A DNA stretch of 64,000 nt from Candidatus Eiseniibacteriota bacterium (GTDB lineage Bacteria; Eisenbacteria; RBG-16-71-46; CAZEPH01): positions 10,022-74,021 of the forward strand of contig JBGATO010000010.1 in assembly GCA_044229145.1 (NCBI GenBank), given 5' to 3'. Within the stretch, counting starts at the first letter, position 1; the number at the start of each line of letters is the position of its first letter. The notes beneath the pieces were generated by a model that made no database searches, was not told where the DNA came from, and saw only the letters and a program-made list of their open reading frames with translations. Shown one piece after another: positions 16,709 to 20,808 of the stretch. The position numbers and the translations under genes were made by a program.

Positions 16709-18064
16709 TTACGAGGCGACGCTGTCGGCGAGCGGCTCCTCGGCCGGCACCTGTTGCACCGGCGTGTAGAGCACCTGGAAGGTGCCGGAAGCGATCAACG
16801 AGCGCAGCGCCCCCACCACTTGCGGGTCGAACTGGGTGCCGCTGTATTTGTCGAGTTCGGACAGCGCTTTCTCCGCGGTCAAGGCGGCGCGGTACGGCCG
16901 GTCCGAGGTCATCGCGTCGAACGTGTCGGCCACCAGGACGATTCGGGCGCCGAGCGGAATCTGGTCGCCGCGGAGTCCCTGCGGATAGCCCTTGCCGTCC
17001 ATGCGCTCGTGGTGCGACCGCACCACCTCCGACGCCTTCGACAGGGTCCGGACGCTGGCGACGATGTCGGCGCCGGTGCCCGGGTGCGCGTCCATGCGGC
17101 GGCGTTCGTCCGGGGTCAGGCGGCCGGTCTTCTGCAAGAGGCCGCGGAGGTCGCCGCGCACCTTGCCGAGGTCGTGCAGCAATCCGCCGAACTCGATCAC
17201 CTCGATCTCGCGCTCGTTGAGTCCCATGCCGCGCGCGATCTGTACCGCGTACTGCGAGACCCGCAGACTGTGGTTCCGGGTGTACGGGTCGACTTCTTCG
17301 ATGATGCTGGTGAGCGCCCGCACGAAGTCGCCGAGGTCCTTGCGAATCTCTCCGTACAGCTGGAAGTAGTACCAGAACAAGATCAGCGGCAGGACGCCCA
17401 GCAACGCCCCGACCAGTCCGGCGCTCTGGCACACTTCGGCGATCAGCAATCCGGTGCTCAGCGACACCACCGGGAACAACATGCCCTTCTGATAGTTCTT
17501 GTGCCAGATCTGCCGCAGCGGTTCGCCGGTGTAGAGCGAGATCACCAAGCTCACCGCAAGTTTGTTCACCAGGATGTAGACCACCGCCGCGACCGACATC
17601 GCGAGCGTATTGCGCAGGACGGCGGAGGAGATCCAGCCGGTCGCGAGTTCCCACTGCGACAACACGAGGTAGAGGTCACCGGCGATCAAGCACATCAACG
17701 CGTAGACGCTCGCATTGAACAGGGCTTGCAGGAGCGGGCGGCGCACCGCGCTCTCGTACACGACGGTCGCCGCGAAGTTGATGCACGCGGTGGGAACCGG
17801 GCCGAGGAGGATGATGCCGGCGTAGTCCAGCGCCGCCGACACCATGAAATAGGCACCCTGATCGGTAGGAATGCGCAGGGCGAGCGACAGCAGGTAGAAC
17901 GCGGTCCACAGGGCCGCCAGCGGCACGCTGAGCGCAGGCGCGCCGGCCAAGCGGGCGGGCGATAGCCCCCAGGCCAAGTACGCGATGCTCAAGCCGACGA
18001 TGCTGCAGTAATAGACGCGAAACGTCGTCCCACCTGCGCGGAACGACGGACGGACCTGGGGCAT
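16709..18064 (-). CDS. Membrane-bound HD-GYP cyclic-dinucleotide phosphodiesterase with multi-TM N-terminal sensor domain
   Basis: About 7 hydrophobic segments in the first ~250 aa, then IEEVDPYTRNHS, LLHDLGK, HHERMDGKGYPQGL, ADTFDAMTSDRPYR. Confidence 0.93.
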   Translation of the reverse strand: MPQVRPSFRAGGTTFRVYYCSIVGLSIAYLAWGLSPARLAGAPALSVPLAALWTAFYLLSLALRIPTDQGAYFMVSAALDYAGIILLGPVPTACINFAATVVYESAVRRPLLQALFNASVYALMCLIAGDLYLVLSQWELATGWISSAVLRNTLAMSVAAVVYILVNKLAVSLVISLYTGEPLRQIWHKNYQKGMLFPVVSLSTGLLIAEVCQSAGLVGALLGVLPLILFWYYFQLYGEIRKDLGDFVRALTSIIEEVDPYTRNHSLRVSQYAVQIARGMGLNEREIEVIEFGGLLHDLGKVRGDLRGLLQKTGRLTPDERRRMDAHPGTGADIVASVRTLSKASEVVRSHHERMDGKGYPQGLRGDQIPLGARIVLVADTFDAMTSDRPYRAALTAEKALSELDKYSGTQFDPQVVGALRSLIASGTFQVLYTPVQQVPAEEPLADSVAS

Positions 18065-18122
18065 GAGATGTCCTTGTCGGATGTGCGTGGTAGGGACGGC
18101 ACCGGACGAAGGGCTGTGTTAC

Positions 18123-18141
18123 GGTCACGCGTAGTGTGACC
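18123..18141 (-). other. Short hairpin directly after the peptide stop codon
   Basis: GGTCAC-actacgc-GTGACC on the minus strand; no U-tract. Confidence 0.45.
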
Positions 18142-18215
18142 TACCCACCCCACCCGTACTTGTCCAGGCTCACGGCACTCAACAGAGTGGCGAGAAGTGC
18201 GTAGACCAGGTCCAT
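18141..18215 (-). CDS. Small 24-aa hydrophobic peptide MDLVYALLATLLSAVSLDKYGWGG (below the ORF-track cutoff), candidate signalling-peptide precursor
   Basis: Minus strand reads GAGGGGG-tacgctt-ATG GAC CTG ... TGG GGT GGG TAG. Strong SD at good spacing, hydrophobic core, polar W-containing tail, stop codon 76 nt upstream of the HD-GYP start. Confidence 0.7.
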   Translation of the reverse strand: MDLVYALLATLLSAVSLDKYGWGG

Positions 18216-18397
18216 AAGCGTACCCCCTCGAAAAGAAGTGCCTCCGACGTACATCTCTCACGAGGAACGGATTCGCTGGCTTGTCTGGTCGCTTCGCTAT
18301 TCCCTTCGTGTCCCGGTGCGCGATCCCTTACACGATGCACTGCGCTTCACTGCGTGGTCCGTGCCCCTCCTCGCTAGGTGGGCCACGGGCGAGGGTA

Positions 18398-18426
18398 ACA
18401 ATGCCCCCCGTCCGAACCAGCGTCAA
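18398..18426 (-). promoter_or_regulatory. Putative sigma70-type promoter for the peptide/HD-GYP transcript
   Basis: TTGACG-N17-CATTGT on the minus strand. Confidence 0.5.
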
Positions 18427-18468
18427 CCCGGAAAGTGGACCGGATTACTTGCCACCTGTCGCTTCGCG

Positions 18469-18493
18469 CAACATATGGTGTATCAATATGTTG
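18469..18493. promoter_or_regulatory. AT-rich inverted repeat, putative operator
   Basis: CAACATAT-ggtgtatca-ATATGTTG, about 40 bp upstream of the -35 in otherwise very GC-rich DNA. Confidence 0.55.
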
Positions 18494-18546
18494 GATACGC
18501 GCTTCGATTCCGCGCGGCGTGCATGACGACGATGCGACACGCGCCC

Positions 18547-19965
18547 TCACGGAGAATGGAGGACCGGGAACAACGCGGAATGCGGCATCTCCCCGAGGTG
18601 CCAGGATGGTGCCGGCACGACCTCCGGAGATTCTGCGAGACGCACGGCCGCCCCGACCGCGCGGCCGCGCACATCGACCCACCGGAGCACCGCAGGCGAG
18701 CCGCCCTCCCATACTGCGTAGCGCGCACCCTTCCGCCACACCGTGCGCAATCCGGTCACGTGCGCGACGGCATCCGCACGGAGCAGCGCCGGCTCTTTCG
18801 GAGTATCGGGAATGCACACGCGAGACCCGGCGATCTGCCAGCGTTCCTCGAGCGCGGAGTCTCGCGAGGTCCAGACAGCGAGGGCGGCCCGCGTGCCCAT
18901 CGCGGCAGACTCCCCCGACTGCGCACCCTTGGCCGCCAGCGTGACGACGCCGCCCAGGCCGTCTCCGGTGTCGTCGAGCCACCGCGCGCGCACGGCAGGC
19001 TCGCCCCCGTCCTCGCTTCCCCAGACGCAAAGCACGCTCGTCCCGACGCGGGTGAGCCGCGGTGACAGTTGGTGCTCGAAGTCCACGGGGTCCAGGAGTC
19101 GCGCGGTGCCGAGGCCTCCCTCTGTCCCCCAGCGTCGAGAGACGATGCGGGTGAGGCCGTCACGGCCCTCGGCCCACGCGCAGACCACGCCGTCGTCCAG
19201 CGCGGCCAGCGCGGGCGCACTGCGGCGCGCCATGCGGTCACCTTCCGACAGCTCGCACCCTGGGACCAGCGCGCCCGCCCCGCGCGCGAGGTACCCCGCC
19301 AGAACACGAGACGGCCACTCCCCCGAGATCCAGGCGACTGCGAGACTGTCACCCCGCCACGGCACGAGGGTGGGAGTGCGGGAGGCTTCCTCCCGGGCGG
19401 TCCACTGTGCGGCCGCGGCGCGCGGCTCCCCGCTTGCCGCGCACCATGCGCCGGCGATGGCCGGCGTGTCGTCGTTCCAGTCGGTCCACAACACGGCGAG
19501 CGCATCCTCGTTGGGCGGCGCGTCCGGTAGCCACGCCACGCGCGGCAGGGCCGGAAGGCGCCAGGCATTGGTTTCCGCCAATGCGTGTGCCGACGGAACA
19601 CCGTTCCCGTCTTGCACCCACAGCATGAGTACGGCGTTCGCGTCGGTGACACATTCGGCGGCCACGCACACCGATCCTCCGCGCGCCGCGACGCTCGGCG
19701 CGCCAATGGTGGCCGGTCGCGCGCGCGCGACCCATTCTCGCGGTTCCCCGACCGCGACGCCGAGAGTATCGACCTCCTGGAGCCACAACACCGACGAGTC
19801 GGCGCCTGACTCCACCCACGCCACCCAGGCACCACCGTCGCGCGCGCAGGCGCTCACCGATTCCACTGATCGCGCTCCGCTGGACCATGGCATTGCACCG
19901 CACTGCGCCCGCGCCTCAGCCGCGCACAGCAGCGCAATCCATACGCCCACCCATCGCCCCCGCAT
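18547..19965 (-). CDS. Hypothetical secreted protein with repeated beta-rich units (possible beta-propeller)
   Basis: RBS GGAGGAGG, signal peptide MRGRWVGVWIALLCAAEARA, repeated P-x-(V/L)-A...V-x-W motifs. Confidence 0.65.
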   Translation of the reverse strand: MRGRWVGVWIALLCAAEARAQCGAMPWSSGARSVESVSACARDGGAWVAWVESGADSSVLWLQEVDTLGVAVGEPREWVARARPATIGAPSVAARGGSVCVAAECVTDANAVLMLWVQDGNGVPSAHALAETNAWRLPALPRVAWLPDAPPNEDALAVLWTDWNDDTPAIAGAWCAASGEPRAAAAQWTAREEASRTPTLVPWRGDSLAVAWISGEWPSRVLAGYLARGAGALVPGCELSEGDRMARRSAPALAALDDGVVCAWAEGRDGLTRIVSRRWGTEGGLGTARLLDPVDFEHQLSPRLTRVGTSVLCVWGSEDGGEPAVRARWLDDTGDGLGGVVTLAAKGAQSGESAAMGTRAALAVWTSRDSALEERWQIAGSRVCIPDTPKEPALLRADAVAHVTGLRTVWRKGARYAVWEGGSPAVLRWVDVRGRAVGAAVRLAESPEVVPAPSWHLGEMPHSALFPVLHSP

Positions 19966-20085
19966 CGTCCTCCTCCCCACCCGCACCGGGGAGCCACTCG
20001 CAAGCCGAGGGCCGACGGGAGGAAACGCCGATGCCCCCGCCGCGGAGGCGAGGGCATCTCGGTTCTGCGCCGATGTCGACAGCGT

Positions 20086-20808
20086 TCAGTCCACGCTGTA
20101 TTCCGTGTGGTCGCGCGGCGGCAGAGTCCCCAGCACGCGGTTCACCGCGTCGAGGGCCGCGACGGCGGCCGCCTGGTGAATATCGCCGCGGTCGAGGGCC
20201 GTGCCCACGAGTTCGTGCGCCGAACGCCCCTCGATGACGCGGACGGTCACCAGGGCGACTTGCCCGAGGCTGCTCTCCACCTCCCGCACGTCCTCGAGCT
20301 CGAACTCGACCCCTGAGTCGATGGCCTGCGCCACGGCGCGCAGCGTCGCTTCGGCGACGATGCGCAGCTTCGCTCCCTGCCGCAGGGTGCCGGAAGCGGA
20401 TCCGCGCAAGATTGCGTTGTCCTGACGCAGTTCGACATCCGCCCGCGCACGACCGGTCTGCAGCGACAGCGTCACGCTGTCGAGCAACGGACGCACGAGG
20501 GCAGGCGCCGCCGCAGGACGGAGGTCGAGCACCGAGGGTGTGGTCATCGTCGAACCGGCCTCCGCCAATTGCACGATCGAGATGCGCCGGTAGTCGATCG
20601 GCAGCTCGAGCGACACGTTGAGGGCGGTCACGATATCGCGCACGATGCGGTTGGCCGGCCGCGCCGCGGTGGCCATGATATGCACTTCGGTGATCTCGCT
20701 ACCGCTGGTGGTCACCCGCACGCCGCGCACATCACGGATGCGGCGGATGACCTCTTCGACCTCGGAGACCCAGCCCGGCCTCTCGTCGGCGTCTCGTGAT
20801 TCGCTCAC
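20086..20808 (-). CDS. Conserved-type hypothetical protein; C-terminal half resembles the LeuA (2-isopropylmalate synthase) allosteric domain
   Basis: RBS GGGAGG plus GTG. C-terminus ...AEATLRAVAQ...ELEDV...VALVTV...VGTALDRGDIHQAAAVAALDAVNR. Fold assignment is by eye. Confidence 0.6.
   Translation of the reverse strand: MSESRDADERPGWVSEVEEVIRRIRDVRGVRVTTSGSEITEVHIMATAARPANRIVRDIVTALNVSLELPIDYRRISIVQLAEAGSTMTTPSVLDLRPAAAPALVRPLLDSVTLSLQTGRARADVELRQDNAILRGSASGTLRQGAKLRIVAEATLRAVAQAIDSGVEFELEDVREVESSLGQVALVTVRVIEGRSAHELVGTALDRGDIHQAAAVAALDAVNRVLGTLPPRDHTEYSVD

Follow-up and report, generated by a model that had tools for sequence, protein, structure and literature searches.

A conserved Trp-tailed micropeptide gene within a predicted structured leader upstream of MASE9-HD-GYP genes in the Eisenbacteria

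The pairs MgrB-PhoQ, SafA-PhoQ, KdpF-KdpABC, CydX-CydAB and AcrZ-AcrB each tie a very short, hydrophobic peptide that annotation misses to one polytopic membrane protein. The same description fits the predicted product of a 24-codon open reading frame (ORF) that we analyzed in a 64,000-nucleotide (nt) stretch of DNA from Candidatus Eiseniibacteriota bacterium (GenBank assembly GCA_044229145.1, contig JBGATO010000010.1, positions 10,022 to 74,021 of the forward strand). This whole stretch is called the window below, and positions are counted from its first letter. The ORF lies directly upstream of a gene for a predicted membrane-bound phosphodiesterase of cyclic di-GMP (c-di-GMP), of the MASE9-HD-GYP type. 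It differs from the MgrB and SafA type in that the target would be a c-di-GMP phosphodiesterase with a MASE9 domain, the peptide-target interaction itself being putative; in that many members of the peptide family have 16 amino acids, are acidic and probably do not span the membrane; and in that the peptide gene is located inside the structured leader of the target's own messenger RNA (mRNA). No HD-GYP or MASE domain is known to us to have a micropeptide partner.

Three other kinds of described system come close. The leader and arrest peptides TrpL, TnaC, ErmCL, SecM and MifM share with the present locus a short leader ORF with a strong Shine-Dalgarno (SD) sequence, conservation focused on the end of the ORF, Trp codons and a hairpin next to it. 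Here, however, no terminator/antiterminator or SD-masking helix overlapped by the ORF has been demonstrated, and the long-range helix of this leader, P1, encloses the ORF instead; moreover, the hydrophobic N-terminal part and the repeated tails of the peptides are left unexplained by a leader-peptide model, and their tail motif, G-[KR]-x-G-W, matches no arrest motif known to us. The Gram-positive signaling peptides SHP (with Rgg) and ComS-XIP (with ComR) and the cyanobacterial PatS also have 17-30 amino acids, a hydrophobic N-terminal part, a short conserved C-terminal unit and a gene beside that of the sensor, and the GG end of SHP and the WW of XIP recall the tail of the window peptide. Their sensors, however, are cytoplasmic RRNPP proteins or HetR, reached after export, processing and re-import, whereas the candidate sensor here is a membrane HD-GYP enzyme in a Gram-negative-type bacterium of the FCB group, and no exporter or peptidase was found beside the ORF. 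Finally, panhandle pairing, as in the RNase III stalks of ribosomal RNA and of phage T7 mRNAs or in the hok-type fold-back, resembles P1 in that a long helix is built from both sides of a small cistron; P1 differs in being a predicted helix, in enclosing a domain that also carries conserved AGCGAAGCG boxes, and in having no Rfam match.

For the enzyme itself, the nearest described proteins are TM1467 of Thermotoga maritima and HdgA of Streptomyces venezuelae, whose MASE9-HD-GYP architecture, about eight transmembrane (TM) segments followed by an intact HD-GYP domain, is also that of the window enzyme (Galperin and Chou, bioRxiv 10.1101/2021.11.05.467447). MASE9 is described there as an 8-TM sensor domain whose ligand is not known, with poorly conserved periplasmic loops, and its describers argue for binding within the membrane; unlike the present loci, no upstream micro-ORF or leader RNA is mentioned in the passages on MASE9 there (bioRxiv 10.1101/2021.11.05.467447).

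A conserved micropeptide gene upstream of the phosphodiesterase

The elements at the core of the module are the following.

18141..18215, minus strand: small ORF, 24 codons plus TAG, encoding MDLVYALLATLLSAVSLDKYGWGG; ATG at 18215-18213, TAG at 18143-18141
18223..18229, minus strand: SD sequence of the small ORF, GAGGGGG, exactly 7 nt 5' of the ATG
16709..18064, minus strand: MASE9-HD-GYP phosphodiesterase gene, 451 amino acids; ATG at 18064, 76 nt past the small-ORF stop; SD sequence AAGGA at 18075-18071

The window sequence bears out what an initial annotation, made without database searches, had read there: the small ORF, its SD sequence at 7 nt, a hairpin after it, and the HD-GYP gene 76 nt further on. 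At 24 codons the ORF is shorter than the usual limits of gene callers, and the equivalent ORF is absent from the called genes in the public records of the relatives examined. Its product has a 15-residue hydrophobic stretch with Asp on both sides, which is borderline for a single membrane-spanning helix. The downstream protein matches the Pfam families HD_5 (9.7e-38) and HD (2e-19) and, over residues 97-209, part of MASE9 (PF20972; 27.9 bits against a cut-off of 24.3), a match that is also in the precomputed Pfam annotation. With 7-8 hydrophobic segments between residues 17 and 236, and with HD at residue 297, HHE at 351 and GYP at 359 within HHERMDGKGYP, it agrees with the earlier description of about seven TM segments and an intact HD-GYP domain, and by its sequence it is a predicted MASE9-HD-GYP c-di-GMP phosphodiesterase.

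The comparison across genomes carries the case for the small ORF. It covered 206 species genomes of the window's class, which is the entire phylum in the set used; 151 of them have an orthologue of the MASE9-HD-GYP gene, one per genome, and the upstream DNA was examined at 129 of these loci. A short ORF on the same strand was present 60-420 nt before the tblastn match in 105 of the 129, a linkage tight and specific enough to uphold the coupling of peptide gene and multi-TM HD-GYP gene first proposed from the window. The search for short hydrophobic ORFs with W-containing tails upstream of homologues, which had been suggested as a check, thus turned out positive across the phylum, and also at a few loci of other phyla. 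Sorting the loci into families, for which we use the arbitrary codes f1-f18 (the window is f1), shows that the 24 loci lacking the ORF consist of 22 from family f9, one from f2 and one whose contig ends 119 nt upstream. The complete module is also found in Latescibacteria bacterium DG_63 (FCB group of NCBI; GCA_001302905.1), with the ORF product MPRLIYTIVAALLSYITVSGGQSNWW.

The pattern of change within the ORF is that of a translated gene. In the seven sequences of the window's own lineage (the window, L002, L003 and L291-L294; alignment A4), every ORF has 24 codons and ends in [SC][LF]DKYGWGG, and variable sites are distributed 12/5/22 over codon positions 1/2/3. The codons that differ from the window are synonymous in 9 of 9 cases in L291 and in 11 of 12 in L002, the two closest relatives. 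Family f10, the largest, typically has an ORF of 16 codons, fM-D-L-I-L-E-L-V-x-F-F-G-[KR]-A-G-W; the second codon positions of its hydrophobic residues are invariant (T) and their third positions vary, and G12, A14 and G15 never change as residues, their third positions being free. Since change is dominated by synonymous substitutions and residues are held with third positions left free, purifying selection at the protein level on a translated ORF is indicated. Initiation signals are equally regular: among 83 small ORFs in a strictly scored subset, all except one carry GGAGG or AGGAG no more than 15 nt from the start, and the start codon is ATG in 45, GTG in 37 and TTG in one, the GTG assignments being based on the position of the SD sequence alone. 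Judged by this conservation, the 24-codon ORF is a genuine and previously unannotated micropeptide gene.

The peptides follow a common plan, with a hydrophobic or amphipathic N-terminal part and, in most families, a C-terminal G-[KR]-x-G-W tail, replaced in the window's family by DKYGWGG. Representative peptides or tails are these.

f1 (window): ...DKYGWGG
f3: ...NSRGHW
f8: MWELLLDLLSVIFEGKSGWM
f10: GKAGW, GRAGW
f11: ...GGQSNWW
f12: MFAMIGWFNFIIALLGGRAGW
f14: MKWGWLALVLSVTLSVLPGKAGW
f18: MIKFIVEGSGLIGLILFALHRAGW

Lengths range from 8 to 47 codons across the loci, and Trp accounts for 6.5% of residues; as many as six Trp codons occur in one ORF. The N-terminal part stays hydrophobic (L, I, F, V) in families that cannot otherwise be aligned, in a genome of 69% G+C (GC), which argues that selection acts on the product and not on the RNA alone. 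In family f17 (L172, L179, L204, L165 and L182) two to three GK[AG]GW units stand in tandem with acidic linkers between them, and one f11 member (L006) has three GGHAWW units; being repeated in this way, the tail behaves as a functional unit. Such multi-tail variants end, for example, in ...DDGKAGWDQAAGDGKGGWDDATPDTGKAGW or ...GGHAWWANGGHAWWMSGGHAWW. A 45-residue form with repeats has 78 homologues in the protein database, all of them unnamed or called hypothetical and none with a Pfam domain, and six representative peptides searched against Pfam and NCBIfam at E values up to 10 gave no relevant match. On sequence grounds the peptide is a member of an undescribed family, in which a short predicted hydrophobic or amphipathic helix is followed by a basic-Gly-Trp tail. 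A full-text literature search with HD-GYP and small-ORF terms returned nothing relevant. No second copy of the peptide gene was found in the window's genome; this is a weak negative, since the first-ATG filter used in the search missed the known ORF too.

Outside the phylum, few full-length MASE9-HD-GYP loci were present among the matches listed, most of which were unrelated HD-GYP proteins. Some of those listed have, just upstream of the enzyme gene, micro-ORFs of the membrane type with strong SD sequences, ending in VRW, TRW, GWSWW or HKWG, in metagenomes and Actinomycetota (L212:440-624, L040:1125-1208, L041:621-698, L211:542-640). At L212, two identical tandem copies of MKKFYKILMILGSLIGIAATVRW lie in a 113-nt repeat, each copy with the SD sequence AAAGGAGGTGG; other products among the matches listed are MKRFARIAAALSALASILLVSGAQTRW, ...TGWSWW (Nocardiopsis, Lipingzhangella) and ...HKWG. 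With KK followed by 18-20 hydrophobic residues, the micro-ORF products from outside the phylum look like classical single-pass peptides. A simple scan of seven Streptomyces MASE9-HD-GYP loci found no comparable ORF.

The leader RNA around the small ORF

The small ORF is enclosed by a long-range RNA helix, P1, and accompanied by further conserved elements, as follows.

18301..18341, minus strand: 5' strand of P1, pairing with 18114-18082
18082..18114, minus strand: 3' strand of P1, equivalent of the phylum-wide spacer box RTGYCGGTCYC
18343..18352, minus strand: box 1, CAGTGAAGCG, first of three purine-rich AGCGAAGCG-type boxes; AGTGAAGCG invariant in all seven window-lineage sequences
18290..18298, minus strand: box 2, AGCGAAGCG; AGCGAAG invariant in A4; conserved across families
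18269..18278, minus strand: box 3, CAGCGAATCC; conserved in A1, a three-way alignment, and in A4; related to CAGAATCC upstream of the SD sequence in other families
18238..18248, minus strand: block GTCGGAGGCAC; GTCGGAG invariant in all seven lineage sequences, full block in five
18123..18141, minus strand: post-stop hairpin of 6 base pairs (bp), GGTCAC / ACTACGC / GTGACC, beginning at the last base of the stop codon
18398..18426, minus strand: promoter-like element, TTGACG at 18426-18421, a 17-nt spacer, CATTGT at 18403-18398

The 3' strand of P1 coincides with a 12-nt box, RTGYCGGTCYC, that is conserved throughout the phylum 40-60 nt past the stop codon of the ORF. Its partner, (U)UGAGACCGRCAUC, precedes the first AGCGAAGCG box by 15-24 nt, and in most families it is formed by the last codons (L-R-P-T-S) of the gene upstream, which encodes a protein we call X. 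With the 5' strand inside the end of X in most families, ribosomes finishing X would have to unwind P1. The helix was assessed on 74 distinct sequences, aligned by anchored positions and without gaps (A3); 84.2% of cells can pair there, compared with 32-44% once the partner is shifted by one to three columns. Both sides have changed at 12 of the 16 pairs, and 115 compensatory cells were counted against 50 +/- 6.8 in shuffled alignments, none of 500 shuffles reaching the observed value. In the largest family P1 is 13-18 bp long, and the window's P1 has about 30 bp. The RNAduplex energy for the window (18341-18301 with 18114-18082) is -46.6 kcal/mol, and cognate duplexes of four window sub-lineages range from -46 to -56 kcal/mol, compared with -27 to -42 for duplexes across lineages. 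RNAalifold recovers P1 from A4, with 12 pairs showing compensatory changes, and the helix is also part of the minimum-free-energy fold of the window.

Enclosed by P1 are, in this order, two to three AGCG[AG]AGCG boxes, a variable hairpin, the SD sequence, the ORF and the post-stop hairpin. Because the two strands of P1 flank the ORF, the transcript from X (or from a lineage-specific promoter), the ORF and the HD-GYP leader all have to share one RNA, and co-transcription of the small ORF with the HD-GYP gene is shown by this covarying helix. The initial annotation had the features of the ORF right and missed the conserved, covarying structure around it, a structure that keeps a cis-regulatory role in play. 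In the window's lineage a gene inserted after X sets the leader apart from it, and here the leader has its own promoter-like sequence, TTGACG-N17-CATTGT. In A1 both TTGACG and GCATTGT are invariant, and by eye the layout TTGAC-N17-CA[AT][AT]GT recurs in L291, L293 and L294, the second hexamer being weaker in L292 (CAGGCT); the element scores under the threshold of a consensus promoter scan.

Equivalents of box 1, AGCG[AG]AGCG, are conserved phylum-wide, and each leader has two to three copies of this 9-mer, which could be a candidate binding site for a protein or an RNA. In some genomes of the phylum the same 9-mer also occurs elsewhere, in head-to-tail arrays with a period of about 21-27 nt (G120:C118:9332-9409, G110:C117:9330-9380 and G119:C226:70-132); in the G120 array, AGCGAAGCGAAGACGGTGCGATG is repeated every 23 nt. 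The doubled form AGCGRAGCG-N-AGCGRAGCG was tried as a phylum-wide marker and rejected, a control with the reversed pattern giving similar counts and the background being too high.

Further pairings were considered within the enclosed domain. For block GTCGGAGGCAC, RNAalifold predicts pairing to ORF codons 16-18 (GCCTGGAC), without any compensatory change, and GTCGGAGG could alternatively pair with TCCGAC at 18081-18076, just 5' of the SD sequence of the HD-GYP gene, both partners being invariant. These alternative pairings could constitute a switch; invariance makes covariation uninformative in this case. The stem of the post-stop hairpin is preserved by paired changes in L002 (GGCCAC/GTGGCC) and L291 (GGTCAT/ATGACC), and in L292 and L294 a different hairpin takes its position. 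RNAalifold also paired the ORF end (GGCUGGUAA) to the spacer box, and this partner is enriched, being the best one in 23 of 70 sequences; at 6-7 bp, half of them G-U, and with no covariation, the pairing was not adopted, and the true partner of the spacer box is the one located more 5', where the upstream gene ends. A helix between the purine-rich AGCGAAGCG region and the pyrimidine tract was likewise discarded, cognate partners being no better than non-cognate, shuffled or reversed ones. Between the ORF and the HD-GYP gene, a consensus scan found no terminator or attenuator, and the pyrimidine tract past the spacer box has no conserved U-run. No match to Rfam was obtained for the window at gathering thresholds, for 17900-18900 at E values up to 10, or for seven related loci up to E=1. 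Peptide and leader are not assignable to any named family, there being no match in Pfam, NCBIfam or Rfam.

The neighboring genes

As judged by tblastn synteny, the conserved order in the phylum is protein X, the leader with the small ORF, the MASE9-HD-GYP gene, purM and an oxidoreductase of the GFO/IDH/MocA type. Two upstream genes of the window belong to this picture.

20086..20808, minus strand: protein X, 240 amino acids, C-terminal half like the LeuA regulatory domain; conserved upstream neighbor of the module
18547..19986, minus strand: secreted protein, 479 amino acids, with a signal-peptide-like start and repeated W-x-x-x-DG-like stretches

Protein X has a weak match to the Pfam family LeuA_dimer. 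Its AlphaFold model (predicted local distance difference test, pLDDT, 79) consists of an N-terminal alpha-beta domain and two beta-beta-beta-alpha units, and its top Foldseek matches are to the leucine-binding regulatory domain of Mycobacterium tuberculosis LeuA (1sr9, 3fig). A role for X in binding double-stranded RNA is at most a faint lead, as the Foldseek matches to double-stranded-RNA-binding domains have TM-scores of only 0.16-0.19. The predicted secreted protein, which has no match in Pfam or NCBIfam, stands between X and the leader in the window's lineage only, with 515 amino acids in L291 and 412 in L294. Neighbors in the window thus comprise the HD-GYP gene, purM, the oxidoreductase, the LeuA-regulatory-like protein, the secreted protein, a PfkB kinase and ArgRS. 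In family f9, protein X and the small ORF are missing together, and the HD-GYP gene and purM are kept. We asked whether the f9 enzyme could be a fusion that has absorbed the peptide (a 'Rosetta stone'); its longer N-terminus aligns with the first TM segment of the other orthologues, so that it is no fusion.

What the peptide may do

The reading that we favor, to which we give a probability of roughly 0.45 and therefore somewhat less than even odds, is that the peptide is a self-made partner or modulator of the MASE9 sensor, as a subunit or as a ligand. It can be envisioned that the strong SD sequence leads to abundant peptide, that the peptide becomes associated with the producing cell's own inner membrane, and that it binds either the MASE9 domain or the membrane-proximal face of the enzyme, where it would set the rate of c-di-GMP hydrolysis as a dedicated modulatory subunit or a self-made ligand. 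P1 would in turn set the ratio of peptide to enzyme, whether as an insulator of the peptide cistron or as a double-stranded site for processing. What suggests this reading is the preserved hydrophobicity, the repeated tail unit, the recurrence of Trp-tailed micro-ORFs before MASE9 enzymes of other lineages and a sensor that has no known input and for which ligand binding within the membrane has been argued (bioRxiv 10.1101/2021.11.05.467447). As in the MgrB and SafA type, Trp together with Lys or Arg at the end of a helix are typical interfacial anchors.

Several findings weigh against it. In the 22 loci of family f9 the enzyme is kept and the peptide ORF is missing. The commonest form of the peptide has 16 residues, acidic at positions 2, 6 and 9, and is too short and polar to span a membrane, leaving about 10 helix residues of which two to three are acidic. 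ORFs shortened to 8, 12 and 13 codons (MKMGKAGW in L175 of G155, MDILVLLGKAGW in L170 of G152 and MDLLIDVLTRAGW in L132 of G097) keep the SD sequence, the tail, the stop and P1, and lose most of the helix; these short, tail-only forms fit a nascent-peptide or termination signal acting in cis at least as well. Conservation reaches into the stop codon, which is TAA in 52 of the 83 scored ORFs against about 10% of long open frames in a genome of this GC content, and the Gly codon preceding Trp is GGC or GGT in all 60 tabulated short-form ORFs (15-19 codons), the 8-codon variant having GGG. The TAA preference and the restricted Gly codon suggest that the end of the ORF is under an extra constraint at the level of RNA or termination. 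Finally, these peptides run from an acidic N-terminal end to a basic tail, the reverse of the charge pattern in the KK-start micro-ORFs of other phyla, with which homology is not established.

The strongest competitor, which we hold to be rather unlikely, takes the small ORF as a leader ORF acting in cis, with no job for the peptide itself. Slow decoding or termination at G-[KR]-x-G-W-stop, through a nascent-peptide effect or the supply of Trp transfer RNA, would hold the ribosome, and the held ribosome would remodel the domain closed by P1 and so set transcription read-through, processing or translation of the HD-GYP message. The position of the ORF is well suited to this, in the 5' leader and predicted transcript of the HD-GYP gene, inside a conserved, covarying structure and behind a strong SD sequence, and so is a conservation that concentrates on the C-terminal residues by the stop in ORFs whose N-terminal part ranges so widely in length; the codon restrictions and the 8-13-codon variants described above point the same way. 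The Trp content given above also favors it, and Escherichia coli TrpL looks similar. Also in line with this scheme is the hairpin, which starts at the stop codon and has been preserved through compensatory substitutions, and the start signals of the HD-GYP gene are weak in the largest family, where by eye they are often GTG or TTG with a weak SD sequence. However, P1 does not overlap the ORF and would thus not be melted directly by a ribosome translating the ORF; the consensus scan found no terminator-like site, and the sole pairing of the ORF end with the spacer box is the short, G-U-rich and non-covarying one set aside above. Nor is Trp fixed in relation to the stop, families ending in WGG (the window), WM or WGPGGP. 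That G, K/R and A are conserved as amino acids with free third positions is needless for a pure sensor of Trp codons, and the hydrophobic N-terminal part, the tandem tail repeats and, in another lineage, the whole gene in tandem copies all suggest that the product itself is important. The modulator reading and the cis-acting one are not mutually exclusive.

A bolder extension of the modulator reading, which we regard as a good deal less likely, joins both levels. The Trp-tailed peptide, either anchored or as a freed GKAGW-type unit, would be the endogenous ligand of MASE9, and the leader that P1 closes, AGCGAAGCG boxes included, would set the peptide-to-enzyme ratio as a new riboregulator, possibly responsive to a metabolite or to the translation of X; a self-contained circuit from peptide to c-di-GMP would then recur, with different peptides, in several phyla.

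The initial annotation had gone further in another direction, proposing that the peptide is exported or cleaved and sensed by the TM domain, for a quorum-type control of c-di-GMP possibly acting on the pili encoded nearby. In this scheme the peptide, or a cleaved Trp tail, would be outside the cell and reach MASE9 from its periplasmic side, with effects on pili or biofilm. The Trp tail is indeed the conserved unit and is repeated two to three times with acidic linkers in one family, as in multi-copy pro-peptides; SHP, ComS and PatS have a similar layout of a hydrophobic, leader-like N-terminal part and a short conserved C-terminal unit, and the adjacent receptor would be a polytopic membrane sensor with no known ligand. 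Export or cleavage does not agree, however, with an acidic M-D/E start that offers neither a positively charged N-region nor a signal-peptidase site, with a commonest form of 16 amino acids, or with forms of 8-13. No exporter, peptidase or peptide-modifying enzyme is conserved beside the ORF in Pfam scans, synteny or the gene tables of related contigs, which leaves quorum-type sensing without support as well, and the window neighbors include no adjacent cytoplasmic tetratricopeptide-repeat-type receptor or transcription factor of the RRNPP kind. Sensing from the periplasmic side also runs against the preference of the describers of MASE9 for binding within the membrane, given its poorly conserved periplasmic loops (bioRxiv 10.1101/2021.11.05.467447). 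As for the pili, their genes are about 27 kb away and are linked to the module by nothing beyond shared presence in the window. We therefore consider an exported pheromone improbable.

Hardly any credence is due to an unrelated small hydrophobic product, whether a type I toxin-like membrane peptide silenced by long-range mRNA pairing or a precursor of a ribosomally synthesized and post-translationally modified peptide: the small hydrophobic peptide and the long 5'-3' helix closing its mRNA resemble hok-type toxin mRNAs, which are closed in the same manner, and the leader-plus-repeated-core layout of one family resembles such precursors, but the gene is single-copy (by a weak copy search) and strictly syntenic before one orthologous gene across the phylum, a location and copy number unlike those of type I toxin-antitoxin loci (no search for an antisense RNA was made), the short length and acidity of many members are at odds with pore formation, and no radical SAM enzyme, YcaO protein, lanthionine synthetase or similar modifying enzyme is encoded among the neighbors, in the syntenic regions or in the related-contig gene tables.

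Whichever reading applies, the locus adds a phylum-wide family of unannotated genes and a covariation-supported leader RNA with no Rfam counterpart, and it is a clear case of a conserved gene missed by gene callers through their length cut-off. Should the ORF act in cis, its end, G-[KR]-x-G-W-stop, would count as a new candidate signal, of the nascent-peptide or the termination kind, by which a second-messenger enzyme is controlled. The membrane sensors MASE1-12 of c-di-GMP enzymes are widespread, and we know of none with an identified ligand. The co-encoded micropeptide offers a concrete experimental handle on one of them, and, if the peptide is the endogenous ligand of MASE9, no MASE-type sensor would have had its input identified earlier.

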